Shown: piece by piece, positions 715 through 58,865 of the stretch | Numbering within the stretch: the first letter of the stretch is position 1 | Layout of the letters: each line of letters opens with the position of its first letter | Made by a program: the position numbers and the translations under genes | Notes under the pieces: model-generated | Told to the model about the DNA's origin: nothing | Databases searched by the model: none | What the model saw: only the letters and a program-made list of their open reading frames with translations | NCBI RefSeq assembly: GCF_030684315.1 | Contig: NC_081374.1 | Coordinates: 25,709,978-25,773,977, forward strand | Length of the DNA: 64,000 nt | From: Stegostoma tigrinum | Taxonomy: Eukaryota | Reading direction: 5' to 3'

Positions 715-1220
715 TCTAGAATAGGCAAAATCATTTCAAAAAACGTGTTCTCCCAAATAGAAGGGAGATAGCCATTGTTTTTTTCTCTCCTTTCAGAGGA
801 TCGTGAGCCTCGTCCCAGAGAACGCGGATGTTTGTTTTTAAGACAGAGGTAGATAGATTATTGATGAACAAGGGGCACAAAGGTTATAGAAAAAGGCTGG
901 GCTGGGGGACAGGGAACTGGAGTTAACAGGTGTGGAGCTGGAGGAACACAGCAGGCCAGGCAGCATCACAGGAGCAGGAAAGCGGACGGTTTCGGATCTG
1001 AATATTTTACACTTCTTCTGAAGAATGGTCCAGACCAGAAACCGTCAGCTTTCCTGCTCCTGTGATGCTGTCTGGCCTGCTGTGTTCCTCCAGCTCCACA
1101 ACTTGTTATCTCAGACTCCAGCTTCGGCAGTTCCTACTACCTCTGAGGGAATTGGAGTTGATGCCTCATTCAAATCAGTGGGATTTTGCTGAATGGTCGA
1201 ACAGGCAGGCAGGCCTGAAC
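715..1220 (+). mobile_element. Old CR1-type LINE 3' fragment, interrupted by the PLE palindrome at 925-1145
   Basis: gaggtagatagattattgat...aaggttat and ttgctgaatgg...gcctgaacagcctact resemble the CR1 3' end at 37088-37455. Confidence 0.5.
925..1145. mobile_element. Palindromic PLE-tail mini-insertion with hammerhead-like core
   Basis: Inverted arms ~925-1000 and ~1017-1145; core CTGAAGA..GAAACCGTC; TSD AGGGAA(C/T)TGGAGTT at 911-924 and 1146-1159. Confidence 0.85.
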
Positions 1221-1929
1221 AGCCTACTTCTATTTCTAATTCATAACACGAGACACCAAAAAATGACTATCACGGTCCAGGTAGTTTCATTAAGCACAGG
1301 GTTTTGTTTTGAGAATGTCAAAACCTCTGACCGTGTAATGCAGATCATTTAGGGCGAGCTCTACATTCCAAAAGGAAATGGCAAATTGCGATTCCAACCA
1401 TAAAACATAACTGAATTACGTTTTATTTTAAATGACCAAACTGGTATATTGTTAGAAAATTTGATTCACCCACGCACCAAATTAAAACTGCAAATTAGAC
1501 CAAATTTAAGCCCATGGTCAGGTTAAAGCTCCAGTCATGCAGCGACTGTGTCCCTGTCACTGGACTTATATCGCGGATTCAATTCCCTAACATTTCTGAA
1601 CAGGTTGATTAGAAAATACCTAAGACTTACACTATAGCCGACATCACAAGCATTCCGTTTTATTACCTCCGCTGGCGCCTCCAGTGTTCAGGCATAGTCA
1701 TGACACTTTAGCATTCCCTCGATGTAAAAGAAGTCCATTGAGGCGCGCCAGTTCATTCTGCACTGATCTTCTACTTGATGGGCCGAATGAGCCGGACTCA
1801 TGACGTTCGTGACTAATTTTAACGTTCATTTGGCATGCCAAAGTGTTGTCAGAGAAATGTGAATCACCAAACATATACTGTATGCCAGAATCACAGTCAA
1901 TAAATATCACCTAATCATTGAGTCATAAT

Positions 1930-2345
1930 TTCATAGGAAGACTTTTAGTCATTTGAGTCCATGTCAGCTCTCTGGAGGACAATCTTACCAGTTCCATTCT
2001 CTCACTCTATCTCTGTAGACTTGTTTGTTTTTTTTTGTTGAAGGGCCATCGAACTTCCTTTCGAAATCATGCACCAGCTCCATTTCCAACCCGTCACAGC
2101 AGTAAGTACCAGGCAATTATCGTTTACTGTATCCCTTATCCGTGAAACCATTCTAGTAGCTCCCCTGTGCAACGTCTCAAGGGTATTCACATCCTTCCTA
2201 ACGTCTGGTGACCAGAATTAAATGCAATCCTCTAGTTGTGGCCTAAGCAAAACTATGCGCAAGTTTGGTGTGACGTCCCAACTTTTCTGCTTAGGAGACG
2301 CGCGGTTTCTGTTTTTTTGTTAACTGCTCCCTCAAAACGACCTGC
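1930..2345 (-). mobile_element. Old CR1-type LINE 3' fragment
   Basis: ttcacatccttcctaacgtctggtgaccagaattaaatgcaatcctctagttgtggcctaag matches the CR1 RT-end pattern; ORF fragment TLETLHRGATRMVSRI. Confidence 0.55.
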
Positions 2346-3565
2346 CACATCCAAAGATTATGAACTTGATAAAACGAAGTATTTTCACGTATGTCCCACC
2401 TCCCTGTTTCTCCTTCTCTAGTCACAGCACCTCACATTAATACGCAGAAGTACCTCCTTGGCAAATCTCTGCAACAGTCCAAAACGTTGGACTTATGAGT
2501 GTTTATTCAAAGCGGTCAGTGTCTTTTGTACTGTGGAGATATTTAAAACAATAGTAGATATAAGGAGCTCCCTGGATGTCATATCTAATCAATTTTGGCA
2601 TATCGCTCTCTATACTCTTCAGCGTTTTGCTTCCGATTTAGCTCTGAAAATAATCTCAAATATAGCGTGGATGTCAACGTATCGCAGAGACAGTGTAGTA
2701 TCCATACGTGTGTGGCACCTGGCTATCTAATTCACATTTAGGAGCGATCTCGTTACAGCCGATGAACGCGCAATGCTTTATGTCATATTATTACTTTGTA
2801 AATGTTGACATGGGCACCCATAACATCTGGATAGAGCCTTGGCGTCATTATCTCTTAACTCGGGTTTCATGTTTCTTGCTTTCCCCATCCTACAAAGCAA
2901 TTGCACCGGAGACATGAGCCGATCATGGCCGCAGGCCGACCAAGTGGCGACAGCTGAAGACAAATAGCATTCTTCGCAGTGCTGAGATAACTGCACCCGG
3001 AATAACAGGGTCTAATGAGGTCAACATTTACAGGCTTGTAGTTAGCACTGCACTAGGCAGGCATGGCTATTCACTTAGATTTATATAGAACATGACTGTA
3101 CATACAAAATGGTTCCTAGACATAAAATGCATTGGCCATTCTCCTGACAGTGCAACGCATTTAAGTATCATTTCACAGACATAAAGTTCACTAAATTGTG
3201 CATCTCAGTTTTGAAAACAAAGAGCTGGCCTATGTTTATTCAACAAGTTGCAATGAATAACCATCTAGGAAGAACGCATTCGGAAAGTTTATATTGAAAC
3301 TTTTAAAAAAAGTTTGGTGGTGGAACTTGAACGTTAATGGGACATTTTTCTGTTTCCATGTTGCAATCTCACCACTTCAATACCACAGACCTTACAAGCG
3401 TGTTGTGAGGCAGCGTTCATGAAAGAATTGTTGATCACACATCCCGTACGGCAACTAGCACTAAGGGCTCGCTCCCATCACTCAAGCTTTATCGATGCCC
3501 TTTATTTTGCAAAAAAAAACTGGCCAGAGAGGTGAAATCAACTGCTTTTAAATTGAAAAATACTG

Positions 3566-3579
3566 CCGCCACCTTGCGG
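3566..3579 (-). promoter_or_regulatory. CTCF-like motif
   Basis: Reverse complement CCGCAAGGTGGCGG matches CCRSYAGRKGGCRS at 13 of 14 positions; lies in the CpG-retaining domain. Confidence 0.45.
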
Positions 3580-5703: not shown

Positions 5704-5708
5704 TATAA
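5704..5708 (+). promoter_or_regulatory. TATA-like box of the host gene
   Basis: ggggcttTATAActcag followed by CpG-rich cccgccgcg, about 270 bp upstream of the candidate ATG. Confidence 0.45.
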
Positions 5709-8179: not shown

Positions 8180-8261
8180 AGTCAAAGAACTGCAAAATGT
8201 CAACTTTCCTGCTCCTCTGATGCTGCCTGGCCCACTGTGCTCCTCCAGCTCCAGACTGTGT
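8180..8261. mobile_element. Short PLE-tail insertion with a very short inverted arm
   Basis: aaagaactgca (inverted tail end) joined to aaatgtcaactttcctgctcctctgatgctgcc...; TSD TACCTTAGGA at 8170-8179 and 8262-8271. Confidence 0.75.
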
Positions 8262-9876: not shown

Positions 9877-10130
9877 GGCAGCACGGTGGCTCAGTGGTTA
9901 GCACTGCTGCCTCACAGCAACAGGCGCCCATGTTCAGTTCCACTCATGCTAAATTGTCCAAAGTGTTCAGGGATGTGTAGAATAAGTGAGGTTATTAGTG
10001 GCATTGGAGGGGGGTGGGGGGGGGAGGGGCGCGGTGGTGGCGGTGGGTTGGGCCTGGATGGGATGCTCTGAGGGTCAGTGTGGGCTTGTTGGGTCAAATG
10101 GCCTGTTTCCGTACTGTAGGGATTTTATGA
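9877..10130 (+). mobile_element. HE1-type tRNA-derived SINE, internally deleted
   Basis: Head GGCAGCACGGTGGCTCAGTGGTTAGCACTGCTGCCTCACAGC and tail ggcctgtttcc..ctgtagggatt; homologous to 27097-27409. Confidence 0.8.
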
Positions 10131-11252: not shown

Positions 11253-11908
11253 TAGAGTCGTAGAGTTACACAGCACAGAAACAGACCCCACGGTCAAACT
11301 CATCTGCATTGACAATTCTAATTATACTGATCTAGTCCCATTTGCTAGCATTTGGCCCATATCCCTCTAAATCTGAACAAACCTTGTATCCATCCAGATA
11401 CCTTCTCAATGTTGTAATTGTACTCGTTGCCTCCTCCTCGACTTCTGGCAGCTGGTACCATACACACACCGTCCTCTGCATGGAAAAAATTGCCCCTCAG
11501 ATCCCTTTGTTAAAATCTTTCCCCCTCACCTTAACTGTACACCCTTTAGTTTTCAACTCCCCTACCCTAGAAAAAAGACCCTGCCCCCCATGATTTTATA
11601 AACCTCTTTTAGGTCACCCCTCAGCCTCTGATGGTCCAGGGCAAAATAACCCCAGCCTATTCAGCCCCTGCCTATCTCCCAACCCTCTTACCCTGGCAAC
11701 ATCCTTGTAAATCCTTTTTGAGCCCTTTCAAGTTTAACAACATCCTTCCTACAACAGGAAAGCCAGAATTGAATGCAGTATTCTAAAATTGGTTTTACCA
11801 GTATCTTGTACAACTGTAACATGATGGTCCAACCCAACTCCTATACTCCGTGCACCGACCAATAAAGGTAAGCATGCCAAACACCTTATTTACTACCCCG
11901 CCTACCTG
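11253..11908 (-). mobile_element. CR1/HER1-type LINE 3' fragment
   Basis: catttggcccatatccctctaaa...aggtcacccctcagcctc...cctggcaacatccttgtaaatc pattern. Confidence 0.8.
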
Positions 11909-11934
11909 ATTCTAGGTATTGTAAATGAATCTTT

Positions 11935-12545
11935 TCCCATTTTCCAGTATTGGCCCATATCCTGCTAAATCCTTCCAGTTCATGTACCCGTCCAGATGTC
12001 TTTTAAATGTTGTAATTGTATCTGCCTCCATCACTTTCCATACATGCACCACCTCCAGTGTCAAAACATTGCCTTTCAAGTCCCTTTTATATCTTTCCCA
12101 TCTCACCTTAAACCTATGCAGTCTGGTTTTGGACTCCCCTACTCTGGGGAAAAGTTCTTGGCTGTTCACCCTATCCATGCCCCTCGTGATTTTATAAACT
12201 TCTAAAAGGTCACCACTTAGCCTCCGGTGCTCCAGGTTTAAAAATGCCCCAACCTATTCAGCCTCTCCCTTCAGCTCAAACCCTCTATTTCTGGCAGACT
12301 TAATTTTTTTTCGAACCCTTTCAAGCTTCACAAAATCTCTCCTAAAACTGGGAGATAAGAACTGAATGTAATATTCCAAAATTTGCCTCTCCAATGTCCT
12401 GTAAAGTTGCAACATCACCTCCCAACTCCTATACTCAAAGCAATGACCAATAGAGGCGATTATATTCTGTCTGCCTGCGACTCCACTTACAAGGAGCTAT
12501 GAACTTTCACTCAAAGATCCTTTCGTTCAGCAACACTCTCCAGGA
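11935..12545 (-). mobile_element. CR1/HER1-type LINE 3' fragment (second adjacent copy)
   Basis: Minus-strand ORF MDRVNSQELFPRVGESKTRLHRFKVRWERYKRDLKGN...FKRHLDGYM is a CR1 ORF2 C-terminus. Confidence 0.85.
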
Positions 12546-13742: not shown

Positions 13743-13974
13743 GAACAAAAATGGAAGTTGCTGGAGAAGCCCAGCAGATCTGGCAGCATTTGTGAAGAAA
13801 AAATCAGTAATGTTTCAAGTTTGGTGACCCTTCCTAAGGGCCTGAAGGTCTGAGGAAGGGCCACTGGACCCGAAACATTAACTCTGATTTTTCTTCATAG
13901 ATGCTGCCAGTTTTTCCAGCAACTTCTATTTTTGTTCCTGATTTACTGCATCCGCCGTTCTCTTGGTTTTTATT
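13743..13974. mobile_element. Palindromic PLE-tail mini-insertion (older subfamily)
   Basis: Inverted arms meet at cccttcct...CTGAGGAAGGGCCACTGGACCCGAAACATT; flanking direct repeat TTTCATTTG at 13734-13742 and 13979-13987. Confidence 0.8.
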
Positions 13975-14811
13975 CTACTTTCATTTGCACCTGGTTCTCA
14001 CTTTACATTAACAAATATTAACATGTACTTAATGTCATATTTGAAGCAGTCTTCTATTTATGTGTATAACATGCAGCTCTCATCTATAACTTGGAGTTCA
14101 TAACAGATCTATAATTTTCAGTGTAGGTCAAACATATGCATTTCCATTTTGAACAATCAAGAAATCAGGCCCAAAATGGTCCCAAACTCACACTGGTCAA
14201 ATCACTGTTAAAAATAATTTGCATGATCACAGATATAAAACATCAAGCAATTACAATTGGGCAGCATGATATATTGTAAATGTTTATTTTCTTCCCAATC
14301 AAAGATATTGCTTAATGTACTTAATGGTGCCTTTTCATTTCTGATAAAAAGATGGGTTTAATACCAAAATAAATTCTTTCATCCACCTGTGAACAGCCTG
14401 ACTTAAAATAACTGTAAATGTTTAAAAATATTACAAAACTTCTTAACTGCTTTTTTGGTGTACATTAGTCAGTTCTTCGTGAATGATTTTTTTGTTTTAA
14501 TATGCAAAAGATTTAAATGTGCCAACTGATTTCTGTCCACCTAACGCATCCAATTTGTAAAGCCTTCCCAAGCCAGTGAAATCTTGCAGTACTACCAGAA
14601 GAATATGGCCACATTTGTGGACAGAGACTGATCCCAGCTAATTGAATCTCCAACAGTGCAAAAGATTGTTGTAAACAAAGTAAATAAGCGGTTGTATGTG
14701 TAACTCACCTGTTTCACATTCACCAACCTTTTTGATAGCTTGGCTGATTTTTCCTCACTGCTGTAAACCAGTGGAAACACAAGTATATTCTATTCAGCAT
14801 ACTCAAATAAA

Positions 14812-15005
14812 AGCAAAATACTGCATATACTGGAAATCTGAAACAAATGAAGAAAACTCGTATCATATGTGGAGAGAGAAGTAGATAAACATTTCAAATT
14901 CAGTTTGACTTCAGAACTGAAATATCAGCTATAGAGAAGAGTCATATTGAATTCAATGTTAATTCGGATTTCTCTCCACAGATGCTGCCAGTTTAGTTGA
15001 TTATT
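14812..15005. mobile_element. Degenerate palindromic PLE-tail insertion
   Basis: aaaagcaaaatactgc...tgtggagagagaa versus ttctctccacagatgctgccag; arms meet near gacttcag/gaagagtc. Confidence 0.55.
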
Positions 15006-15154
15006 TATTTTAGCAACTAAATGTGTAAATTTTAAAATAATTTTGGCCTTGGAACAAGTATGTATCTTAGACTCTCCAATCTTATTGTTTTGGCAACTGT
15101 TATCTTTTTCTATGGATTTATTTGCTGAATGAAAATCTGTGGTATAATGATTTG

Positions 15155-15325: not shown

Positions 15326-16408
15326 TTGACTATTTTTATTTGAACTTTAAGAATTATGAGCCAGAATAACTAAATGAAATCAATTATTCCTGCATAATGA
15401 GGGCTAATGCCTTAACTTTTTTAGAGGCCAATTCCAGTTGGGATCCTGCCCGCACAATGTGTATGAAGGAAATTCGATATGTATTCTCTTGCACATGATC
15501 GCTACCTAATCTGTTCTCAGTTTATTCTTTGTCTTCAACTTTATGTCAGCACTTCGCTGCTCTCACCCATACTTTTAAGATTCTTGATATATACAAATGA
15601 ATTTCTTAACTGTAAGCCTTTTCAGAGTTCTATTAAACACAGCATTCATCTGGTCCAAGTAAAGTTTAAGATGATGAGAAAATGTGTCCCAGGTTCTGTG
15701 CTTCATGCATTTTTTTTTTTTTCTGTTGCTTTTTCTTCTGTTGTTTGAATTCTTCCATTCCTTGCTCATCCTTCTATTTCTAGCAAAAGTTTCAACTGTG
15801 CAATCAGGTACTTTCTCCTCAACACTAATCAAATAGTTAGCACTTGAACAGCTTTAGAAGCAAGGTGGGCACATCTCTTAAACATTCCTAGTCCGAACGA
15901 AAACTTCTTCAATGTGAAATATTAATCTCTTTCTCTCTTGTTCTTTCACTCTCTGTCACCCTCTCCACTGCTGCCAAACCTGCTGACTATTTTGAAGTCT
16001 TGTGCTTTGATTTCATATTTCCTACTCTAACACTTTCTTCTCTTAATTAGTAATACCTGCAGAATTGTGATGTTCATCGTGGCCACTTGGATCATTATAT
16101 GCCCTATTGAAAATTCACAGCAGCATTTTTGGATGCCGGTATAGGCAGTTTCAGTTTGCCACATCTCTGCACTAAATCCATAATGAATGGAGAAGCTTTC
16201 CTGAACGTGTAGGTAATGTGCCAGTCTGCACTAAATCATGCAATTGAGTGTCAGATTTCCTGGCAGCTCTCATGATTCATGTATTTTAAGGTAATGTACC
16301 GTGCTGGTTTTACTAATGCAGATGGAACAGTTGGCTGCTAAGTGACTATAGGTATCTCTTTGGTCCTAGTACATGATCTGATTGATACAGCGCATGCAGC
16401 TATGAACA

Positions 16409-16564
16409 CAAAAGCTGACGTTTCGGGCCTAGACCCTTCATGAAGGGTCTAGGCCCGAAACGTCAGCTTTTGTGCTCCTGAGATGCTGCTTGGCCTGCTG
16501 TGTTCATCCAGCCTCACATTTTATTATCTTGGAATTCTCCAGCATCTGCAGTTCCCATTATCTC
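16409..16564. mobile_element. Young palindromic PLE-tail mini-insertion
   Basis: Perfect 68-bp palindrome at 16407-16474 centred in the hammerhead core (CCCTTCA|TGAAGGG); tail essentially identical to 26728-26851; TSD TGCAGCTATGAACA at 16395-16408 and 16565-16578. Confidence 0.95.
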
Positions 16565-22320: not shown

Positions 22321-23424
22321 TGAAAAGTTAAAGAAGGAAACAATTGACAGTTGTGGTAACTTATCCTTAGGCTATCTACTTAAATGTCCATCTTCCCCTT
22401 GCATTCCTTCATTAATTTCAGAACTCCCTACTGCTTGACTCATTTGTACTTAATGGTTTTCAAGATGTCATCTTCGGTCAGTTATGCTGACCTTTTGTGA
22501 TGACATAACTGACTGCTTCCCTGATTCTGCACATTTATGACTGCTTGAGGCAAAATTCTCATGATGCCCTGATTGCTCTACACCCTACAGCATTATGCAT
22601 CTCTGATTACTCCAAATCCCTCCTCTGTGATTCCTTGTATGTATTCTTCAAGTAGGTTATGTCAAACATGACTGCCTGGGACAATTTGTCCTTTCTATTT
22701 TCCACAGCCCAGTGTTTATATATTTGGATTACATTGAAATAAGTAGAATGCTCAATACTTCCCATATGTTACAGCACGCTTTGAAAACTGAGTCCAGCAA
22801 AGTCTACATTTGAATACAGCTTAGATTGCAGCATGAGAATTCTCCACCATGAACAAAACTCTCTTCAAGCAATGCACATGAACAAGGTCCTTTAACTTTC
22901 CGGTCATGAGGTTCACCCAATCATTTCCTGTCCAGCTCATAACCAGCTTGGTATTTGATATTGGTATAAATGATGCCATTTAATGGTTCCTGTACTACTT
23001 TCTCTTAGACATCATGATTCATCCTAACCTGTAAGTAGAACAGAATGAATATTATAGTGTGCATTTTTCCATTTTCTCACTTGCAACAGCATACTCATAT
23101 GTGATTTTCTAATCCATGCTCATGGCAGGCAATGTGACATTTAGAAAGCAGCATCTCAGGAGCACAAAAGCTGACGTTTTGGGCCTAGACCCTTCATCAG
23201 AGAGGGGGATGGGGAGAGGGAACTGGAATAAATAGGGAGAGAGGGGGAGGCAGACCGAAGATGGAGAGTAAAGAAGATAGGTGGAGAGAGTAGAGGTGGG
23301 GAGGTAGGGAGGGGATAGGTCAGTCCAGGGAAGACGGACAGGTCAAGGAGGTGGGATGAGGTTAGTAGGTAGCTGGGGGTGCGGCTTGGGGTGGGAGGAA
23401 GGGATGGGTGAGAGGAAGAACCGG

Positions 23425-24660
23425 TTAGGGAGGCAGAGACAGGTTGGACTGGTTTTGGGATGCAGTGGGTGGGGGGGAAGAGCTGGGCTGGTTGTGTGGT
23501 GCAGTCGGGGGAGGGGACGAACTAGGCTGGTTTAGGGATGCAGTCGGGGAAGGGGAGATTTTGAAACTGGTGAAGTCCACATTGATACCATATGGCTGCA
23601 GGGTTCCCAGGCAGAATATGAGTTGCTGTTCCTGCAACCTTCGGGTGGCATCATTGTGGCAGTGCAGGAGGCCCATGATGGACATGTCATCTAGAGAATG
23701 GGAGGGGGAGTGGAAATGGTTTGCGACTGGGAGGTGCAGTTGTTTGTTGCGAACTGAGCGGAGGTGTTCTGCAAAGCGGTCCCCAAGCCTCCGCTTGGTT
23801 TCCCCAATGTAGAGGAAGCCGCACCGGGTACAGTGGATGCAGTATACCACATTGGCAGATGTGCAGGTGAACCTCTGCTTAATGTGGAATGTCATTTTGG
23901 GGCCTGGGATAGGGGTGAGGGAGGAGGTGTGGGGACAAGTGTAGCATTTCCTACGGTTGCAGGGGAAGGTGCCGGGTGTGGTGGGGTTGGAGGGCAGTGT
24001 GGAGCGAACAAGGGAGTCACGGAGAGAGTGGTCTCTCCGGAAAGCAGACAGGGGAGGGGATGGAAAAATGTCTTGGGTGGTGGGGTCGGATTGTAAATGG
24101 CGGAAGTGTCGCAGGATGATGCGTTGTATCCGGAGGTTGGTAGGGTGGTGTGTGAGAACGAGGGAGATCCTCTTAGGGCGGTTGTGGCGGGGGCGGGGTT
24201 TGAGGGATGTGTTGCGGGAAATACGGGAGACGCGGTCAAGGGCGTTCTCGATCACTGTGGGGGGAAAGTTGCGGCCCTGAAAGAACTTGGACATCTGGGA
24301 TGTGCGGGAGTGGAATGTCTTATCGTGGGAGCAGATGCGGCGGAGGTGGAGGAATTGGGAATAAGGGATGGAATTTTTGCAGGAGGGTGGGTGGGAGGAG
24401 GTGTATTCAAGGTAGCTGTGGGAGTCGGTGGGCTTGAAATGGACATCAGTTACAAGCTGGTTGCCTGAGATGGAGACTGAGAGGTCCAGGAAGGTGAGGG
24501 ATGTGCTGCAGATGGCCCAGGTGAACTGAAGGTTGGGGTGGAAGGTGTTGGTGAAGTGGATGAACTGTTCGAGCTCCTCTGGGGAGCAAGAGGCGGCGCC
24601 GATACAGTCATCAATGTACCGGAGGAAGAGGTGGGGTTTGGGGCCTGTGTAGGTGCGGAA
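23425..24660 (-). pseudogene. 5'-truncated PLE ORF in the left arm: RT C-terminal half, Zn linker and GIY-YIG endonuclease
   Basis: FRTYTGPKPHLFLRYIDD...CNRRKCYTC...NVVYCIHCTRCGFLYIGETKRRLGDRFAEH; frame open but no native start. Confidence 0.92.
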
Positions 24661-26499
24661 CCCTACCGCCTCCTCAATCATGACCCCACACCCGAGCACC
24701 AAACCATCATCTCCAACACCATTCACGACCTCATCACCTCAGGGGACCTCCCACCCACAGCCTCCAACCTCATTGTTCCCCAACCCCGCACGGCCCGTTT
24801 CTATCTCCTTCCCAAAATCCACAAACCTGTCTGCCCTGGTCGACCCATCGTCTCAGCCTGCTCCTGCCCCACCGAACTCATCTCCACCTATCCGGACTCC
24901 ATTTTCTCCCCTTTGGTCCAGGAACTCCCCACCTACGTCCGTGACACTACCCACGCCCTCCACCTCCTCCAGGGCTTCCAATTCCCTGGCCCCCAACACC
25001 TCATATTCACCATGGATGTCCAGTCCCTGTACACCTGCATTCCGCATGGAGATGGCCTCAAGGCCCTCCGCTTCTTCCTGTCCCGCAGGCCCGACCAGTC
25101 CCCCTCCACCGACACTCTCATCCGCCTAGCTGAACTCGTCCTCACACTCAACAACGTCTCTTTTGACTCCTCCCACTTCCTACAGACTAAGGGGGTGGCC
25201 ATGGGCACCCGCATGGGCCCCAGCTATGCCTGCCTCTTTGTAGGTTATGTGGAACAGTCCCTCTTCCGCACCTACACAGGCCCCAAACCCCACCTTTTCC
25301 TCCGGTACATTGATGATTGTATCGGCGCCGCCTCTTGCTCCCCAGAGGAGCTTGAACAGTTCATCCACTTCACCAACACCTTCCACCCCAACCTTCAGTT
25401 CACCTGGGCCATCTGCAGCACATCCGTCACCTTCCTGGACCTCTCAGTCTCCATCTCAGGCAACCAGCTTGTAACTGATGTCCATTTCAAGCCCACCGAC
25501 TCCCACAGCTACCTAGAATACACCTCCTCCCACCCACCCTCCTGCAAAAATTCCATCCGCTATTCCCAATTCCTCCGCCTCCACCGCATCTGCTCCCACG
25601 ATAAGACATTCCACTCCCGCACATCCCAGATGTCCAAGTTCTTTCAGGACCGCAACTTTCCCCCCACAGTGATCGAGAATGCCCTTGACCGCGTCTCCCG
25701 TATTTCCCGCAACACATCCCTCACACCCCGCCTCCGCCACAACCGCCCTAAGAGGATCCCCCTTGTTCTCACACACCACCCTACCAACCTCCGGATACAA
25801 CGCATCATCCTGCGACACTTCCGCCATTTACAATCCGACCCCACCACCCAAGACATTTTTCCATCCCCTCCCCTGTCTGCTTTCCGGAGAGACCACTCTC
25901 TCCGTGACTCCCTTGTTCGCTCCACACTCCCCTCCAACCCCACCACACCCGGCACCTTCCCCTGCAACCGCAGGAAATGCTACACTTGTCCCCACACCTC
26001 CTCCCTCACCCCTATCCCAGGCCCCAAAATGACATTCCACATTAAGCAGAGGTTCACCTGCACATCTGCCAATGTGTTATACTGCATCCACTGTACCCGG
26101 TGCGGCTTCCTCTACATTGGGCAAACCAAGCGGAGGCTTGGGGACCGCTTTGCAGAACACCTCCGCTCAGTTCGCAACAAACAACTGCACCTCCCAGTCG
26201 CAAACCATTTCCACTCCCCCTCCCATTCTCTAGATGACATGTCCATCATGGGCCTCCTGCACTGCCACAATGATGCCACCCGAAGGTTGCAGGAACAGCA
26301 ACCCATATTCCGCCTGGGAACCCTGCAGCCATATGGTATCAATGTGGACTTCACCAGTTTCAAAATCTCCCCTTCCCCTACTGCATCCCTAAACCAGCCT
26401 AGTTCGTCCCCTCCCCCGACTGCACCACACAACCAGCCCAGCTCTTCCCCCCCACCCACTGCATCCCAAAACCAGTCCAACCTGTCTCTGCCTCCCTAA
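24661..26499 (+). CDS. 5'-truncated but uninterrupted PLE polyprotein: reverse transcriptase, Cys-rich linker and GIY-YIG endonuclease (Neptune clade)
   Basis: RT motifs FYLLPKIHK, GRPIVS, FTMDVQSLYT, QTKGVAMGTRMGPSYA, RYIDD; linker CNRRKCYTC; endonuclease VLYCIHCTRCGFLYIGQT..R..EH..VANHF; residues upstream of 24661 are antisense left arm. Confidence 0.93.
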   Translation, partial: PYRLLNHDPTPEHQTIISNTIHDLITSGDLPPTASNLIVPQPRTARFYLLPKIHKPVCPGRPIVSACSCPTELISTYPDSIFSPLVQELPTYVRDTTHALHLLQGFQFPGPQHLIFTMDVQSLYTCIPHGDGLKALRFFLSRRPDQSPSTDTLIRLAELVLTLNNVSFDSSHFLQTKGVAMGTRMGPSYACLFVGYVEQSLFRTYTGPKPHLFLRYIDDCIGAASCSPEELEQFIHFTNTFHPNLQFTWAICSTSVTFLDLSVSISGNQLVTDVHFKPTDSHSYLEYTSSHPPSCKNSIRYSQFLRLHRICSHDKTFHSRTSQMSKFFQDRNFPPTVIENALDRVSRISRNTSLTPRLRHNRPKRIPLVLTHHPTNLRIQRIILRHFRHLQSDPTTQDIFPSPPLSAFRRDHSLRDSLVRSTLPSNPTTPGTFPCNRRKCYTCPHTSSLTPIPGPKMTFHIKQRFTCTSANVLYCIHCTRCGFLYIGQTKRRLGDRFAEHLRSVRNKQLHLPVANHFHSPSHSLDDMSIMGLLHCHNDATRRLQEQQPIFRLGTLQPYGINVDFTSFKISPSPTASLNQPSSSPPPTAPHNQPSSSPPPTASQNQSNLSLPP

Positions 26500-26723
26500 C
26501 CGGTTCTTCCTCTCACCCATCCCTTCCTCCCACCCCAAGCCGCACCCCCAGCTACCTACTAACCTCATCCCACCTCCTTGACCTGTCCGTCTTCCCTGGA
26601 CTGACCTATCCCCTCCCTACCTCCCCACCTACACTCTCTCCACCTATATTCTTTACTCCCCATCTTCGGTCTGCCTCCCCCTCTCTCCCTATTTATTCCA
26701 GTTCCCTCTCCCCATCCCCCTCT

Positions 26724-26751
26724 CTGATGAAGGGTCTAGGCCCGAAACGTC
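26724..26751 (+). ncRNA. Minimal type I hammerhead-like motif in the PLE 3' UTR
   Basis: CTGATGA-A-GGGTCTAGGCCC-GAAAC-GTC: core intact, loop-less ACGT helix III; helix I only about 2 bp by eye. The left-arm copy (23173-23200) has GAAA mutated to AAAA. Confidence 0.65.
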
Positions 26752-27096
26752 AGCTTTTGTGCTCCTGAGATGCTGCTTGGCCTGCTGTGTTCATCCAGCC
26801 TCACATTTTATTATCTTGGAATTCTCCAGCATCTGCAGTTCCCATTATATCTGTGACATTTAGAAATATTATTTTTACTCATAAGTACATTTCTCTGAAT
26901 TTCTTAAAATTTTTTTTTCAATTTTTGTGCAGATGTTGTGCAATATGTGGAGCAAATATACAACTCATGACGAATATTTGCCATGAGACTTTACGTGCAT
27001 TTGCTTCTGTAATTCTCCAAATTCAACAGGGCCTACATTTTTTGAAGAACTTTCTCTTAAATATATGGAAATTGCTTTTAAAAAAAGCCCCTATTA

Positions 27097-28822: not shown

Positions 28823-28951
28823 AGAGATAACAGAGTGGAGCTGACCCAAATCGTCAGCTTTCCTGCTCCTCTGTTGCTGCCTGATCTGCTGTGTTCCTCC
28901 AGCTCCACACTGTGTTATCTCTGACTCCAGCATCGGCAGTTCTTACTATCT
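28823..28951. mobile_element. PLE-tail mini-insertion with a 20-bp inverted arm
   Basis: agagataacagagtggagctg is inverted relative to cagctccacactgtgttatctct; imperfect TSD CTTC(AC/TT)TCATGGT at 28810-28822 and 28952-28964. Confidence 0.8.
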
Positions 28952-37578: not shown

Positions 37579-37815
37579 GGGCAATAGAATAAAAGTGTCC
37601 TGAATGTGGATGGCAGCTTATTCACTCATTGCTGGGGATCTTTTACGGGTTGCCATTGCGGGGTTTCCCCTGCCGTCTTCAATGTATAAACCACAGCTTG
37701 TTTTTGCTCCAGCTGCTGTTGCCAGGATAGTACTCTGGATGTTGGCCCCTTTTTCCAAATGTATTGTTGCCAGGTTGAAATTTTAGATGCCTGGCAGTCT
37801 GGAATGGAATTGTAT

Positions 37816-37935
37816 CAGTGATAATGGGAACTGCAGACGCTGGAGAATCCAAGATAACAAAGTGTGGAGCTGGATGAACACAGCAGGCCATGCTGCTTGG
37901 CCTGCTGTGTTCATCCAGCTCCACACTTTGTTATC
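37816..37935. mobile_element. Palindromic PLE-tail mini-insertion lacking the hammerhead
   Basis: agataacaaagtgtggagctggatgaacacagcaggcca / tggcctgctgtgttcatccagctccacactttgttatct; imperfect flanking repeat TCTGGAATG(G/A)AAT at 37798-37810 and 37934-37946. Confidence 0.88.
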
Positions 37936-42539: not shown

Positions 42540-43792
42540 TGTGGTATCATAGTGTTCTAGCAAAAATGAAGTTGATGTGAAACTAGAATAATGCTCTCTG
42601 CTAGCAGGAGTCCGTACCTGGTGCAAAGGAAGACAGTTTTGTTGGTTGGAGGTCTGTCACCTTAGCTCCAGGACATCAATACAGGAGTTCCTTTGGAAAT
42701 AGCCTCAGATCAAGCACCTTCAGCTGCTTCATCAATGATCTCTCCATTGTAGAGTCAGAAGGGAGGCAGTTCAGTGCTGATTGCATAACATTCAGCACCA
42801 TTCACAACTTTTATACTGAAGCAGTCTAACTACACACAAAATATCCAGGCTTAAATAACAAGTGGTCAGTAACATTCACACCATACAAGTGCCAAGCAAT
42901 GACTATATCCATCAGGAGAGGATCTAACCATTGCCCCTTGACATTTAATGGCTTACTGTTGTTGAATCTCCACTATTAATATGCTGGATTTGCCATTGGC
43001 AGGAAACTGAGCGGGAGTAGCCATATGAATACTGGCTAGAAGAGCAGTTCTAAGGTTAGGAATCCTACAACTCCCCAGCGACTATCAGGAATGTGATGGA
43101 ATTCTCTCCAATTGCCTGAATGATTACAGCTCCACGAAAACTTAATTGTGACATTATCCAGAACAAAACAGCCCACTTGACTGAAACCACATTCACAAAT
43201 GTTCCTTCCCTCCTCTACTGACAGTCAGGAGCACCATTGTGCGCCATCTACAAAATATACTGCAGAAATTCATCAAAGCTTCTTAGGTAGCATTTTCCAA
43301 ACCCAAAACAAAGACAGAAATTGCTGGATAACCTCAACAGGTCTGGTAGTATCTGTGGAAAGAAACAGGGTTGAGTAACCCTTCCTCAGTTCTGAGGAAG
43401 GGTCACTCAACCTGAAATGTTAACTCTGATTTGTCTCCACGGATATTCCCAGACATGTTGCGTGTATTCAGCAACATCTGTTTTTGTTTCTGATTTACAG
43501 CATCCACAGTTATTTTGGTTTTCCAAACCCGTGAATATTGCCATCTAGAAGGACAAAGGTGACAGGTATATGGAAGCACCACTATCTGCAAGTTCCTCTC
43601 CAAGCTCGTCACTGTCCTGACCTGAAAATATAAATGCTGTTCTTCAGTGTTCCTGGGTCAAAGCCTTGGAGCTCCCTTCCTAATAGCATTGTGGCTAAAC
43701 ATACACCGGACAGACTACAGTATAACTATGGCAGCTAGAGATGGGCAATAAATGCTGGCCCAGCCAGTGATGTCCACATTCCTGAATGAAAC
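42540..43792 (+). mobile_element. Old L2/CR1-clade LINE 3' portion, interrupted by the PLE palindrome at 43305-43518
   Basis: RT-like caggagttcct...cagctgcttcatcaatgatctc...gctgattgc; tail gatgggcaataaatgctggcccagccagtgatgtccacattcc; same family as 57810-58580. Confidence 0.7.
43305..43518. mobile_element. Palindromic PLE-tail mini-insertion (older subfamily)
   Basis: Arms meet at CCCTTCCTCAG-TT-CTGAGGAAGGG; exact TSD TTTTCCAAACCC at 43293-43304 and 43519-43530; the host LINE reads through once it is removed. Confidence 0.88.
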
Positions 43793-49834: not shown

Positions 49835-50025
49835 AGATAGTAGGAACTGCTGATGCTGAAGAATCTGAGATAACAATGTGAACACAGCAGGCCAAGCATT
49901 ATCAGTGGAGAAGGGAAGATGATGTTTCGGGTCTGGTCCCTGAAGAAGGGTCCAGACCCGAAACGTCAGCTTTCCTGCTCCTCTGATGCTGCTTGGCCTG
50001 CTGTGTTTATCCAGCTCTATACCTT
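49835..50025. mobile_element. Palindromic PLE-tail mini-insertion with intact hammerhead-like core
   Basis: CTGAAGA-A-GGGTCCAGACCC-GAAAC-GTC at 49940-49967, at the arm junction; TSD GTTGCC(T/A)CTATTTAAG at 49819-49834 and 50026-50041. Confidence 0.88.
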
Positions 50026-51140: not shown

Positions 51141-51358
51141 GTTATTTTTCAGTCGCTCATAACTAGAATGTAATATACCTTTTATGAGACACATTGATAT
51201 TCGCTAATGTTTCATAGCACGTGACCTGAGGGTATAGATGCCTTAGCCTCCATCTTAACTCGGGCCATCATTAGTATGGCAGGCTGATGGATATGTGGTA
51301 CACGTGAGAGCAGCCCTATAGGCTGGTAACACTAAGGCAAAGTTACCTTTGGTATATC

Positions 51359-51429
51359 GTTTGTGTGGTGTAATGGTTATCACATTCACTTTGTGTGAAA
51401 GGGCCCTTGTTCCTAAACTAGGTAGAAAC
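51359..51429 (+). pseudogene. Degenerate tRNA-Val-derived sequence
   Basis: GTTTGTGTGGTGTAATGGTTATCACATTCACTTTGTGTGAAAGGGCCCTTGTTCCTAAACTAGGTAGAAAC resembles vertebrate tRNA-Val (GTTTCCGTAGTGTAGTGGTTATCACGTTCGCC...GAAAGGTCCCCGGTTCGAAACCGGGCGGAAAC); anticodon arm damaged. Confidence 0.7.
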
Positions 51430-53204
51430 TTCTGTTTAAGCCGCTGGTTTCACAATAAAGAACTGTTCCTTCTTTTCCTCTCCATTCAATAAAACTGGCC
51501 TAGAGGACTCTTGTGGCACAGCAGTAGCATCCCTACCCTTAAAGTTGGGAGGCCTGGGTTCAAATCCCATCTGCTCCAGAGATATATGGTAACATGTCAA
51601 ACTATAAAGCTGACCCAGATTGCCTATAAATGGGCTTTGCTTGTAAATATTTAATTAGCAACATAGGTCATTACTGACTGCGGTTAAAAGCAAAAAAGGA
51701 AAGGTCACAGTGATTTTGATATGGAAAAATCCCACAACTGAGTGGCTATACACTTCTGGGCATAAAAAGAAAGATAAAAACCAAAAAAGAGAGATGGGGG
51801 GGGAGGGGAAGAGTTGACCCAGGAAAGGCCCTTAGAACAGTCTGTCCTGGTTGGGGCTAGCCTATGTACGCCACTAGTAGTGGCTCTATTTTGGTGTTCA
51901 ACAATAAATAATGTGTCTTTCCAGTTGGGTTTCCTGAGATATTACATGCAGTTATTGCTTTTGGTTCATTGTCTAATATTAACAGCATTCAAATCAATCT
52001 TTTTCAAAAATCATTGACCTGCTTCTGGTACTGCTCCCCTGCCTCGTGTTATTGGGTATGTATGGCTGAGTGTGGGTGAGTGAGTGTGAGTGGTTTAATG
52101 ACTAACTGTGAGGTTAAGCCATGTAGCCAGTCAGTCTACAGTTAACAGGTTACTTGTTGTTGGTCAATTACAACTGGTCATATTCAAAGATTGCTGATAT
52201 ATTCAGGTGCTGATATATTACTGGTTAGATTTACTGGCACTTCTGGTTGGTCTTAGCACAAACTAGTAACTCTGGCTAGAGACGGTTCGTAGACACTGTT
52301 TTGTTTGTTTTCTATGATTGTTTTCCTTCTGGGGAACAATGAGTAATAATTCAAAGGATTTATTTCCCTGGATATGGAAAGAGAAAGAAAAGAAGTAGAA
52401 TGTCAATAATTCCTACTAGATAATAGAGCAACCTAAATAAAATCTGAAACAGATTAGACAACACGTCATATTTAAAAGAAAAATCAAATCTGTTTTGTGT
52501 CTGAAAAGGCCTTATGAAACATTATTTGCTAAGCATCTCTTATGTATCAACGTTTGTAAGACAGTGGAAAAGAATGCATTTCTGTTAACTATTACACATC
52601 ATTCAAATATATGGACATTTAGCTTCAAATATTCGTATAAATTCGTGAGCATTTTTCTACCTCTAATCCTTTCCTAATATTTTTGTATCCATTTTTCTTT
52701 AAGCTATTGCTATTCAATTCTTTTTTCAGTTTCTTTGCTGTATCATTTAATATGCAGTGACTTGGTATAAACATAGATTTGCATAGACTAATTAACTGAT
52801 TACAGCTGCCTGAGTGAGGTTGCAAGGAATTGATTACTATTGCTACCCTTGAAAAATATGTTTTATCAATAAGTTGGATACTGCCAATTTCTGTGCATTT
52901 GCTGTTGCAGTGTGTTTAATAAAATGGGAGAGTCACCATTGTTCTGATCTCTCATTAAAGAGCAACAGCTGGCAGGGAGTTTAATCTGAAGGGCACGATG
53001 CTTCAGGCAAGCTGAGAGGTTAAAGAAAGGAAATGTTTCAGTCAATATGGGATTTGGAAAAAAAGAAGTAAAGTATTATTTAATTGGAGAAAAACTGCAG
53101 AAACTTGATTACTTGTGAATGAAACACAAAGTTAGCACGCGGGTGCAGCAAATAATCAGGAGGGCTAATGGAATGTTGGCGCTTATTTCATGGGAGTTGG
53201 AGAG

Positions 53205-53488
53205 TGTTCCTGCTTGGCATTCACACATTAAGCAAATGTGATAACCGTTACACTATACGTAGAGAATGAAACTTTGTGATAGTCTTACCAGCTGAGAGGG
53301 CTGCTCTGTCTAGTAGAATCGGACAATTGGTTGTGGTTTAATCTGAGGTTTACCATGCCTCAGTTAAGAGGACAGGTTGTGAAGGAAAATCCTTGATAGT
53401 AACCTCAGCTGGTACAGGAATCGAACCCACATTGTAGGCATTAGTCCTGTATTATAAACTGCCTTGCCACATAAACTAAACAACCCCA
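53205..53488 (-). mobile_element. tRNA-derived SINE followed by a tRNA-Val-like segment
   Basis: Minus strand: B box GGGTTCGATTCC, body ctgaggcatggtaaacctcagattaaacc..gagcagccct..ctggtaagactat, then gtatagtgtaacggttatcacatttgc. Confidence 0.65.
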
Positions 53489-53489
53489 A

Positions 53490-56400: not shown

Positions 56401-57752
56401 CCCTGGTGCCTTTTATTCTCCTGAGGCCCTCTTGGAACACTTCAGGATACTTCCCAATGACTTCATACATATCTCTGGTATCCATTTAAAAGATCTGTTG
56501 CCAGTCCAGGCGAAGTTTCTGTAACCAATCCCTTCCCAAATGGTTGGGGCCTGGGCCATGTGCCACCAATCAGGGATGTTGGACTTGTCATTTGCCCCTT
56601 GGTAATTCATGGTACAGTGGCCTCAATAATACATGAGGGCTCCTTGTGGTACATGGCTAATCTAGCCTTTGTGTGTTTCAGGCTAATACACAAGGTGCCC
56701 CATCTGAGTTTACTAAAGGTTTTCTCCCCAGCAGCAATACTTGAGTCTTCTTCCATGTCTGGGCTTGGCCATTTACCCAAAGTTTTATCTTAATGTGGTC
56801 ACTTTGGGAGCAGTGATGCAATTTAGCAGTATCATTCCCTCCTCCTCAGACTGATGCATCTTTTATTTGCAAATCGCTGTCTTGGGGTGGCTTTGCCCTT
56901 CTGTCTGGGTGGTATGCATTTTGCATGTTTCGGTAGCCTTGTCTGGGGTGAAGTTTGTTACCACGTGTGGCATGGATGTCCTTGCTCCTCACTATTGTGG
57001 ACAAATCTCCCATCTGGAACCTTACAGCCTCCAACTCCAATCACCCTTCCTTGGCAACCAGTCGGAACCACAGGTTTTATCCGCTGCGGACTTTGTTGCC
57101 GTGTTATGGGGAGGCTCAGCTGAGGTTGCAGAAAAGGGCCAGTTTTTTGGCTTTTTGATGCCCAGATTTGATTCAGTAGTTTCCTTTGGGATGCAACATT
57201 ATTAATTCCACAAACTAGGCAATTGCTTAATATTTTCTAAAGTACTGACCTATACAGTATTCCACCAAATTTCACAGACTCTTAAGAATTCAGTAACTGG
57301 CTCCCCAGAAGGTCTATTTCTAGTGTTAAACCTGTCACACTGCAATATAACAGATGGTTTGGGGTCGTAGTGGTCCTTTTACTGTATGTATCAATTCATC
57401 AAAGGATTTTGTCTCCGGGCTGTGGAGGGAACAGGGAATAGGGAAAGCACGAAGGGGACTAAATCAAAATGGAGATGGAGGTGGGAAATAAAACAGTCTA
57501 TCCCCTGCAGTGCCCAACTCTCTCTAAATGCATCTAGGATATTGATGCTCCGTCTCCAACAACACCTGGGCACAATAAACCATACGTTTATTGTCTTTTT
57601 GTACACGAACAACCACAAATACCCTAGGTCTGCTTTATAAAGAGCTTAGGTGATGAGTTCTAGCTGGGTAGACCATTGCCTGTTATGAAGGGAACTCATA
57701 TTCAATGAGGTCAACAAGTGATTATTAATTATTTCCCATGCATCCTTACAAC
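53490..57752 (-). mobile_element. Old degenerate Gypsy/Ty3 LTR retrotransposon
   Basis: RT YEYTHLPFGA...AIFQRVMESILLGLP; RNase H FTTFTDHKPML...LCAYEHTLEHHLG...NVNA; integrase KLAHFLFKYGTTPH; diverged direct repeats at ~53570-53690 and ~57610-57735; minus-strand TGTAA(A)GGATG starts at ~53952 and ~57750. Confidence 0.85.
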
Positions 57753-57809
57753 AGTTATCACACGGCACCTACTTGCAACTTCAATATTTGAACCTGATTG
57801 ATACAGGCA

Positions 57810-58580
57810 TTTTTGTTTTCACTCTTGAGATGTGGGTCTCACTGCCTGGCCAGAACTTATTGCCTGTCCCTTCTTGCCCTTGAAGGCGGTGGAGAGCTGT
57901 CTCTTCAACTGCTGCATTTCATCTGCTGCAGCTTGATCCACAATGCCATTAGGGAGAGACTTCAAAGAATTTGACTCAGCAATAGTAAAAAATTAGTGAT
58001 ATATTTCCTACACAGCGTGGTGAATGGTTTGGAGGTGAATTTTAAGGTGGTGGTCTCCTGTATGTGCTGCCCTTATCCTTCTTGATATAAGTGGTTGTAG
58101 GTCTGGAAGGTGTTTTTGAAGGATCTTTGGTGAATTTCTGCAGTGTATTGCGTAGGTAGCATCAGTATGTACTACTGAATGTCAGTGGTAGAGCAGACAC
58201 TTGTGGATATGGTGCCAATCAAGCAGACTGCTTTGTATTGGATGGTATAGAGTGACTTGTGTTGTCGGATCTGCACTCATTCAGGCAAGTGGGCAGTATT
58301 CCATCACACACTTTTGTTTTGTAGATCATGGACAGGCTTTGGAGAGAGAGGAGGTGAGTTACTCACCACACTATTCCTAGCTCTTGACCAGCTGTTGTAG
58401 CCATTGTTTGTGGTGAGTGAGGTTGAGTCCTTGGTCGTGGTGATCCCCAGGGTGATTATAGTAAGGCATTCAGTGAGGGAAACACTATTGAATGTCAAGA
58501 AGTGGTGGTTAGATCATCTCCAATAAGAGACAGTCATGGCCCAGCATTTATGATGGGAATGTTACTTGTAACCCCAAGCC
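57810..58580 (-). mobile_element. Old L2/CR1-clade LINE 3' portion
   Basis: Reverse-complement similarity to 42850-43790 (cactcattcaggcaagtgggcagtattccatcacac; gcctggccagaacttattgcctgtccct). Confidence 0.7.
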
Positions 58581-58641
58581 TCTTGAAAGCTTGTTTTTAG
58601 CTGGAACTCTGAACAACTAAAGGCTTCTTTAAAAAATATGG

Positions 58642-58865
58642 GATAATAAAATGTGAGGCTGGATGAACACAGCAGGCCCAGCAGCATCTCAGGAGCACAA
58701 AAGCTGGCATTTCGGGCCTAGACCCTTCACCAGAGCCCTCTGATGAAGGGTTTAGGCCCGAAACGTCAGCTTTTGTCCACCTGAGATGCTGCTGGGCCTG
58801 CTGTGTTCATCCAGCCTCACATTTTATTATCTTGGATTCTCCAGCATCTGCAGTTCCCATTATCA
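58642..58865. mobile_element. Young palindromic PLE-tail mini-insertion with two hammerhead-like cores back to back
   Basis: Arms of about 94 bp meet at ~58735; core CTGATGA..GAAACGTC at 58740-58767; exact TSD CTTTAAAAAATATGG at 58627-58641 and 58866-58880. Confidence 0.95.

Follow-up and report, generated by a model that had tools for sequence, protein, structure and literature searches.

In EN+ Penelope-like elements (PLEs), the sections of PMC8557442 (Fig. 2), PMC3846280, and PMC2377424 that treat insertions describe an inverted, 5'-truncated copy, a 30- to 40-bp tail at one end, and one target site duplication (TSD), of 8 to 10 bp in the rotifer examples, and two of them propose self-priming or nuclease resolution (PMC8557442, PMC3846280). 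For the minimal type I hammerheads of metazoan PLEs, opposite-strand pairs 100 to 700 bp apart have already been noted in a passage of PMC4209133. With the anole Poseidon element PAc, both strands were nicked and extended in vitro, two internal reverse transcription (RT) starts bounded the tail, and the enzyme was predicted to be a dimer; RNA reads had no ends at the hammerhead cut, uncut RNA was the main in vitro substrate, and ribozyme mutants inserted normally in vitro (PMC11167929). For L1, twin priming, a proposed dual priming on two RNAs, and junction duplications are reported in parts of PMC2837659 and PMC12350158. Both the route of the inverted, one-tailed PLE insertion and the in vivo role of the hammerhead are stated as open in passages of PMC8557442, PMC4209133, and PMC11167929.

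The window, i.e., the whole 64,000-nucleotide stretch of Stegostoma tigrinum contig NC_081374.1, contains PLE copies in which all positions can be given relative to the hammerhead core (0; CUGAUGA core at 26724 in the copy at 23148-26851), with minus values lying upstream. The following features identify the element:

24661..26499, plus strand: 5'-truncated PLE reading frame with RT (YIDD), a CX4CX2C linker, and a GIY-YIG nuclease with CCHH-type residues
26722..26753, plus strand: minimal type I hammerhead (CUGAUGA core at 26724, stem II, GAAA, palindromic ACGU)
between 26751 and 26752 (+27/+28), plus strand: predicted hammerhead cut GUC/AG, from comparison with published features

One ORF combines RT with a C-terminal GIY-YIG nuclease bearing CCHH, which, together with partial tandems, an inverted shortened copy, a one-sided tail, and one TSD of variable length, is shared with the EN+ PLEs treated in parts of PMC8557442, PMC3846280, and PMC2377424. 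The nuclease motif reads VVYCIHCTRC-YIG with two downstream His, and a DKG motif is present in locus L093, which was rejected as a full-length copy, being an old twin beside a separate shortened copy. Pfam RVT_1 matched the ORF (E=7.6e-5, below the curated cut-off), and a Pfam profile search of the ORF gave no nuclease match. The linker between RT and nuclease (CNRRKCYTC) conforms to the CX2-5CxxC motif of the Neptune and Nematis clades, and a natural partial tandem with a unit of 3,584 bp (L051) has the pseudo-LTR arrangement. As in anole PAc (PMC11167929), the hammerhead lies in the pseudo-LTR; differences are the ORF start at +167, downstream of the tail, the CX4CX2C linker, and the arm ends at the cut. 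The ribozyme has CUGANGA, GAAA, and NUH and shares with the metazoan hammerheads in the relevant part of PMC4209133 the core boxes, the unpaired base before stem II with G10.1-C11.1, and the palindromic, loop-less helix III. An Rfam search gave no hammerhead match, and its miRNA matches were below gathering scores and reflect the palindromes.

The initial annotation had described insertions at which two PLE 3' ends point outward within a single TSD, and sequence inspection of the window bore this out for all 11 loci, with TSDs of 12 to 16 bp at 10 of them and a weak, gapped repeat at the eleventh (14812). The proposed size span of about 80 bp to 3.7 kb corresponds to measured inserts of 79 to 3,704 bp, and the six short twins said to join near the core (925, 13743, 16409, 43305, 49835, and 58642) have their junctions at about -10 to +13. 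The two arms are unequal, the last ~35 nt usually being present in one arm only. Five solo tails occur in the window as well (7221, 36848, 37454, 50886, and 62135). The twins are as follows:

925..1146, left arm minus and untailed, right arm plus and tailed: short twin, older subfamily; TSD 912-924/1147-1159, 13 bp, 1 mismatch
8183..8261: 79-bp twin of a 12-nt tail-end arm (minus, weak evidence) and an untailed arm beginning ~7 nt upstream of the cut site; TSD 8170-8182/8262-8274, 13 bp, 1 mismatch
13743..13974: short twin, old subfamily; TSD 13730-13742/13975-13987, 13 bp, 2 mismatches
14809..15010: twin of the old subfamily, decayed, with a gapped and doubtful TSD
16409..16564: young twin, both arms starting at +3, the left one running to ~+40 and the right one to the tail; TSD 16395-16408/16565-16578, 14 bp, 0 mismatches
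23148-24660, minus strand: left arm of the 3.7-kb twin, -1460 to about +52
24661-26851, plus strand: right arm of the 3.7-kb twin, -2063 to tail; TSD of the twin 23133-23147/26852-26866, 15 bp, 0 mismatches
28823..28951: twin in which the left arm is very short (~21 nt) and untailed and the right arm carries the tail; TSD 28810-28822/28952-28964, 13 bp, 2 mismatches
37813..37933: twin with tailed left arm; its arms meet downstream of the ribozyme, at ~+47 to +52; TSD 37798-37812/37934-37948, 15 bp, 2 mismatches
43305..43518: old-subfamily twin; TSD 43293-43304/43519-43530, 12 bp, 0 mismatches
49835..50025: twin with tailed left arm; TSD 49819-49834/50026-50041, 16 bp, 1 mismatch
58642..58865: young short twin; TSD 58627-58641/58866-58880, 15 bp, 0 mismatches

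The arms of the 3.7-kb twin (23148..26851) are 98% alike, and the twin at 43305..43518 sits in a host repeat of which eight paralogous copies have the 12-bp site once (empty sites).

Beyond the window, 22,917 short head-to-head twins were counted genome-wide, most of them 100 to 240 bp long. The main sample consisted of 98 young tail-anchored loci, i.e., the first matches on one contig, selected for having a tail (71 twins, 17 solos, 9 complex, and 1 cut off); 20 regions were added from the genome-wide short-twin list. In 264 kb around the window with 97 tails, 20 adjacent tail pairs were found (17 head-to-head, none tail-to-tail, and 3 direct; about 2 expected), and a held-out 100 kb gave 8 head-to-head, 1 tail-to-tail, and 1 direct pair; a held-out stretch on C5 had no tails and consisted of CA-rich satellite. 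TSDs of at least 11 bp flanked 56 of 65 twins and 3 of 410 mismatched-flank controls, with a range of 11 to 19 bp and mostly 13 to 16 bp; for the held-out twins on C10, the value was only 2 of 8 with a crude TSD finder. The paralogous empty-site test covered 66 twins, of which 59 had no paralog, 1 lay in a tandem array, and 6, in dispersed host repeats, were informative: in all 33 paralogous matches, the two flanks adjoin each other, offset by one TSD length. As the initial annotation had held, these are single insertion events. Compared with the EN+ PLEs in the sections cited above (PMC8557442, PMC3846280, PMC2377424), the mirror-image pair is here the main mode among young sampled insertions (about three quarters of tail-anchored loci), twins are mostly 100 to 240 bp with TSDs mostly of 13 to 16 bp, and end classes were counted. 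A MITE or DNA transposon was rejected, since the ends are unequal, the centres variable, and the TSDs 11 to 19 bp, and the arms run into the RT frame.

Four sequencing runs were searched for the unoccupied target in a relative or in further individuals, and the joint table was swamped by repeat copies. A contig of organism B departs from the window just before the TSD of the 16409 twin and continues for 537 further letters, which is a hint only. The depth of the young-subfamily bin was about 10-fold greater in organism A than in organism B.

The outer ends of the arms are sharply defined, one arm starting near +128 (tailed) and its partner near +92 (untailed):

26810..26851, plus strand: region of two predicted RT starts, where untailed arms end near +92 (26816) and tailed arms near +128

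A TTATCT-like word precedes both positions, folding of the natural tandem copy links them by a weak stem-loop, and the folding z-scores of the tail are unremarkable. Unpaired copies (n=48) comprised 18 tailed and 25 untailed ones, and the overlap of the second arm with the target is mostly 0 to 2 nt. By position, the +92 and +128 starts match the two published in vitro RT start sites of anole PAc, where both strands are nicked and extended and two starts bound the tail; no connection between extension of both strands and inverted insertions is drawn in that paper, in which the word "inverted" is used once, in another sense (PMC11167929). With L1, priming at both nicks, inverted arms within one TSD, and microhomology or end joining are held in common, whereas the second priming site of L1 is variable and internal and its arms are mostly non-overlapping in the parts of PMC2837659 and PMC12350158 concerned. 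Here the second site is mostly fixed, ~35 nt away from its counterpart, overlap between the arms is nearly complete, poly(A) is absent, and the twin is the main mode: 61 of 69 partners of tailed arms end at +81 to +105, overlapping the first arm, and arms both starting from the same RNA 3' site are rare (both tailed in 1 of 69 and, in the regional set, 1 of 17). The initial contrast with L1 was overstated, given the proposed dual priming and the junction duplications of L1. The initial suggestion that two nicks ~14 bp apart each prime RT is likely correct.

The inner (5') ends fall into three classes, i.e., long, about -4, and +28 and beyond. They concentrate in two intervals, -13 to +20 and +28 to +50, separated by an empty stretch from +21 to +27, and the main pile breaks off abruptly on its upstream side (of 159 ends, 4 lie at -100 to -14 versus 75 at -13 to +15). 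Two further positions are relevant here:

26720, plus strand: predicted capped transcription start (-4), from arm-end counts and the preceding G
26690..26696, plus strand: TATTTAT at -34, in most long copies listed, a possible TATA-like box

A clustering of junctions at the hammerhead was confirmed, but not as a property of twins, since 9 of 17 solos and 33 of 71 twins pile up near the core (p=0.79). G precedes 12 of 12 arms ending at -4 versus 12 of 49 at -6 to 0 (p=1.6e-6). For 7 of these arms, the G might instead stem from the last base of the partner, an explanation that does not hold for the other 5 and for one solo (L037). Position -4 is thus likely the capped start and the extra G the copied cap. 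Genome-wide, starts numbered 949 at +27, 3,622 at +28, 729 at +29, and 614 at +30, i.e., +28 exceeds its neighbours 4- to 6-fold. Microhomology inflates this peak, because the site opens with the palindrome AGCT (of 100 matches listed, 44, counted by eye, each form one half of a perfect palindrome) and, in 50 twins listed, palindromes centred on GGCC occur about as often (2 against 3). When 24 true +28 starts were examined individually, 11 had no AGC or AGCT overlap with the partner, including 2 solos and direct re-starts. In the old subfamily, 155 starts lay at -1, 91 at the cut, and 32 at +1 relative to it, counts that are swamped by double substitutions. The +28 ends likely mark the predicted self-cut of the template RNA; the part of PMC4209133 concerned with hammerheads gives no in vivo evidence, whereas here insertion ends pile up at the predicted cut. 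R2 reportedly has its 5' end set by an HDV-like ribozyme, and in both cases a ribozyme cut would define the template 5' end; ribozyme and enzyme differ, and only a minority of ends lie at the cut here. A splice acceptor at about -25 was rejected (no spliced junction among 71 upstream sequences), as was a G-quadruplex stall, which would be expected to fall beyond about -27.

Partner arms resemble each other in both end class and haplotype. Classes were short/short in 50 twins, long/long in 19, and mixed in 2 (p=5e-15); L038 combines an arm at -174 with a partner at +28. Among short twins, both arms lay at +26 or beyond in 14, both before in 31, and on either side in 5 (p=4e-8). In the 19 long twins, arm lengths were not significantly correlated (rho 0.25, p=0.29). 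Diagnostic sites differed between partners at 38 of 256 versus 45% on permutation, and 26 of 36 young twins had identical arm haplotypes (8.9 expected); random pairing of templates is rejected. Arms differing at two or more diagnostic sites were found in 11 of 55 twins and, in a separate count, in 6 of 36 young ones, three of these 6 with perfect TSDs. In L032, L099, and L104, which are long twins of greater age, one arm matches a different locus more closely than it does its own partner. Such mismatched twins need two templates or later conversion, and a 3' patch fits the mismatch in L075.

On balance, and with slightly more than even confidence, we propose that each head-to-head insertion with its one TSD arises when both staggered nicks prime RT on probably the same RNA, which is copied twice by two enzyme subunits. 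An enzyme dimer would bind the 3'-terminal stem-loop of the pseudo-LTR; of its subunits, one would start at +128 from one nick and the second at +92 from the other, and the trailing enzyme would displace the first cDNA. Both would run off the RNA 5' end, either at the capped start near -4, where copying of the cap would add a G, or at the hammerhead cut at +28; long twins would stem from RNAs extending upstream, with breaks or stops at variable places. The two cDNA ends may then be joined via 0 to 5 nt of microhomology, end joining, or a template jump, and the ribozyme would set one RNA end without being required for twin formation. More tentatively, and short of even confidence, overlapping twin priming may be the main route, i.e., a protein dimer copying one RNA twice from two fixed starts 35 nt apart, one per nick, with >20,000 palindromes recording RNA 5' ends at base resolution, thousands of them at the hammerhead cut.

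The initial annotation had suggested that two PLE 3' ends are held together, possibly through the ACGU helix. A related but unlikely alternative is dual priming with two RNA templates, for the most part sisters from a single locus, held together by an ACGU double hammerhead or a protein dimer. Minimal hammerheads cleave weakly, and in vitro only as dimers, and coupled cutting could explain the matched +28 ends; dual priming has been proposed for L1, and two-RNA events are possible for the about 15-20% of twins with arms of different haplotype. A symmetric pair alone does not, however, explain the combination of a tailed and an untailed arm, and haplotype matching rejects random pairing. A need for ACGU is not supported, given the 14 of 50 short twins with both arms starting downstream of it: the cut 3' products lack ACGU, yet these 14 stand beside 4 such solos, a ratio like that of the rest. 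Only 34 palindromes genome-wide centre on ACGU, PLE clades without a canonical hammerhead have the same layout, and the anole ribozyme mutants insert normally in vitro. The ACGU dimer thus gains no support from these data; a two-RNA dimer as such is possible. The stalling of cDNA at the ribozyme, also part of the initial annotation, accounts for the ends less well than do RNA 5' ends; that RT pauses at RNA structure or bound protein, which is compatible with either priming model, appears unlikely. The RNA monomer is predicted to fold as a hairpin from 0 to +29, which would place a stop at its base near +28 to +30, and a pyrimidine tract starts at -1, but the peak is exactly at +28, above +29 and +30, the main pile lies past the hairpin with its sharp upstream edge, and a G before -4 is not predicted.

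Shared haplotypes and shared end classes would also follow, without a second priming, if one cDNA folded back or self-primed, was copied toward the tail, and was resolved by a nuclease at +92, with later central deletions making the arms unequal. Long palindromes do lose their centres. Self-priming or nuclease resolution is suggested in parts of PMC3846280 and PMC8557442, but we consider fold-back quite improbable. Among 71 twins, the untailed arm reaches further 5' by >10 nt in 23, the tailed arm in 20, and 28 are within 10 nt, so that the longer arm may be of either kind, a pattern that speaks for both nicks serving as primers rather than for fold-back. The 23 untailed arms, short twins with mirror-image junctions included, hold 5' sequence missing from the tailed arm (>50 nt in 11, maximum 1.96 kb); furthermore, the +92 end occurs in unpaired copies and matches the in vitro RT start site, and zero-loop palindromes fit the annealing of two ends. 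The notion that a small number of palindromic masters gave rise to all twins by copying, or that one place was hit by two insertions in succession, might draw on recurring junction types and on arms differing in haplotype, but it is very improbable indeed: one TSD surrounds both arms, paralogous sites are empty, and the outer ends are sharp, unlike scattered 5' truncations. Junctions are moreover highly diverse, both orientations of mirror-image junctions were found, and the types that recur do so in mirror form and on several haplotypes.

The layout that the initial annotation took to be new had already been reported in passages of PMC8557442, PMC3846280, and PMC4209133; new here is how the arms end, likely at the RNA start and self-cut. 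Tens of thousands of young events tie this layout to two start sites measured in vitro, and both the insertion route and the role of the hammerhead become simple tests. One retrotransposon seeds >20,000 hairpins of 100 to 240 bp, which score microRNA-like in Rfam and might be misread as miRNA precursors or MITEs. If our reading is true, the thousands of ends at the cut would be genomic evidence of a minimal PLE hammerhead cleaving in the germline.

Positions within the element are counted from the C of the CTGATGA core (position 0, window 26724), and the predicted hammerhead cut, between GUC and AG, lies between +27 and +28. Outward-facing 3' ends of Penelope-like elements (PLEs) were present at all 11 places named in the window by the initial annotation, and target duplications (TSDs) of 12 to 16 bp with 0 to 2 mismatches were found at 10 of the 11, the candidate at window 14812 being gapped only. 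One arm is very short at two of these loci, and the window also contains five solo tails, i.e., unpaired copies. The six short twins said to join near the core indeed do so, with junctions between about -10 and +13. A census by profile search, covering the window and 100 kb to either side of it (264 kb in all), located 97 PLE tails, and the reversed sequence yielded none. Neighboring tails were paired head-to-head in 17 cases, tail-to-tail in 0, and directly in 3 (pairs expected, ~2). The corresponding numbers in a held-out 100 kb of a different contig were 8, 1, and 1. The 100 kb at C5:60.0-60.1 Mb (L179-L188) contained no PLE tail; this region is apparently satellite DNA, CA-rich and degenerate, with ~1% T on the plus strand in the three stretches inspected.

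The young sample consisted of 98 of the first 100 tail matches listed on contig 1, with a flank of only 1.5 kb at 30 loci and with 13 loci corrected by hand before classification, and comprised 71 twins, 17 solos, 9 complex loci, and 1 that was cut off. TSDs of at least 11 bp accompanied 56 of 65 testable twins (mode 14 to 15) and 8 of 17 solos; among controls, the number was 3 of 410. Comparison of the flanks of 66 twins with all DNA retrieved for the analysis placed six of them, window 43305 among them, within dispersed host repeats, and in 33 of 33 paralogous matches of these six, the flanks were joined at an offset of exactly one TSD length. Twins are therefore single insertion events, as had been proposed.

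Of 69 twins with a tailed arm (one that reaches near +128 and carries the last ~35 nt), 61 had a partner arm stopping near +92 (+81 to +105) and 7 had one stopping between +15 and +60; in 1, the partner was itself tailed. Among the 17 head-to-head pairs of the 264-kb census, which is unbiased, 14 combined a tailed arm with an untailed arm, 1 had two tails, and 2 had none, and the unpaired copies were mixed (18 tailed, 25 untailed). The two arms of a twin therefore use fixed, differing start sites. Overlap with the target at either outer end is mostly 0 to 2 nt. In a minority of twins, the second arm stops at +38 to +60 instead of +92 (sampled loci L031, L065, L067, L080, and L104; window 16409 and 23148), which is perhaps a third priming zone.

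The twin layout is already known: an inverted truncated copy, a tail on one side, and a TSD are standard PLE features according to three reports (PMC8557442, PMC3846280, and PMC2377424), and opposite-strand hammerhead pairs were noted in 2014 (PMC4209133). For an anole PLE, PMC11167929 describes nicking and extension of both strands, reverse transcription beginning at two sites, one on each side of the tail, a predicted dimer of the PLE protein, and equally good insertion with a dead ribozyme. The postulated priming at both nicks stands. The suggestion that an ACGU hammerhead dimer helix holds two PLE 3' ends together is not supported. The rule set of fixed +128 and +92 roles, a common 5'-end class, a cap-like G, and a cut-site peak was not found in the literature searched, which covered few subscription papers.

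A common source of the partner arms is indicated by diagnostic sites, 38 of 256 of which differed between partners (63 of the 71 twins) versus 45% on permutation, and by identical four-site haplotypes in 26 of 36 young twins versus 8.9 expected. Differences at two or more sites in 6 of the 36 young twins count against a shared source, as do three older long twins in which one arm resembles a different locus more closely than it does its partner. At the DNA level, copying one RNA twice looks the same as copying two sister RNAs; a dimer of two RNAs as the template source seems unlikely to us.

Among 159 arm ends, 75 were located at -13 to +15, 2 at +16 to +20, 0 at +21 to +27, 7 at +28, 27 at +29 to +50, and 4 further in; another 4 lay between -100 and -14, and 40 were upstream of -100. 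The reported clustering near the hammerhead is thus present, but the near-core pile is as frequent in solos (9/17) as in twins (33/71). The longer arm varied among the 71 twins (23 versus 20, level in 28), and the fact that either arm can be the longer argues against a simple fold-back. Partner arms share their end class: both were short in 50 twins and long in 19, with 2 mixed; in the 50 short twins, both arms ended at +26 or beyond in 14 and before it in 31, with 5 mixed. At the junctions, the arms share up to 10 nt or are separated by up to 16 added nt, mostly within 5.

The end at -4 was analyzed in 61 arms with an intact core and no upstream extension. The preceding base was G in 12 of 12 arms stopping at -4 and in 12 of 49 stopping elsewhere; the partner could supply this G in 7 of the 12, and five arms and one solo are not so explained. 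A TATTTAT motif is located ~30 nt upstream. In young copies, -4 matches a TCT-type initiator; in older copies, the match is to YYANWYY. A cap can be copied as G by reverse transcription. We read -4 as a putative capped transcription start, in which case the short insertions would be run-off copies. The initially envisaged stalling of cDNAs at the ribozyme finds no support.

Genome-wide start positions, counted on copies with both preceding bases mismatched, numbered 949, 3,622, 729, and 614 at +27, +28, +29, and +30, respectively. AGCT-centered perfect palindromes made up 44 of 100 matches listed at +28 (~800 loci if scaled), and ACGT-centered palindromes, 5 nt from AGCT, numbered 34 genome-wide. 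Palindromic overlap adds to the +28 peak, because GGCC-centered palindromes are also common (2/50 versus 3 for AGCT among the twins listed). The 30 rows inspected at +28 represent 26 places, including 2 that were not true starts, 9 AGCT-type palindromes, and 4 with an AGC overlap; the remaining 11, with neither feature, include 2 solos and direct +28 restarts. The peak had no clean replicate in the old subfamily. The +28 position is rather probably a genuine ribozyme end. Some copies in head-to-tail arrangement restart at +28, either immediately after a tail or after the initial ~100 to 140 nt past the tail (L138:1500-1740, L143, L145, and L146), as expected if the template was a circular RNA or if template jumps took place at a cut RNA end.

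The 3.7-kb insertion (window 23148-26851) codes for the end of a reverse transcriptase and for a GIY-YIG nuclease, the CX4CX2C linker of which matches the motif that marks the Neptune and Nematis clades. A natural partial tandem at L051 gives a unit of 3,584 bp with an ORF start at +167. A ~7-kb insertion (L052:9225-10000 and L051:1-7115) with an inverted arm, a partial tandem, and two untailed outer ends is nested in another PLE copy. Tandem arrays with a period of ~50 bp at L033 (contig 1, near 1,104,600-1,106,000) and L099 are built from the PLE tail (+45 to +92) and represent a satellite born of PLE. Other repeats of the window include inverted repeats of 25 bp (92%) that are 730 bp apart and unrelated to PLE (17901-18680) and decayed ~90-bp inverted repeats separated by 1.8 kb (51307-53307), each possibly an old DNA transposon, and further very high-copy repeats at 9877-10130 and 11330-12280 whose read depth resembles that of a SINE or LINE.

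A 31-nt tail end recurs without mismatch 44,328 times genome-wide, and short head-to-head twins number 22,917 (exact 14-nt anchors, gap of up to 90 nt). For the bin of the young subfamily at window 16336-16999, the depth in organism A is ~10x that in organism B, which suggests a burst of this subfamily after the split of the two organisms.
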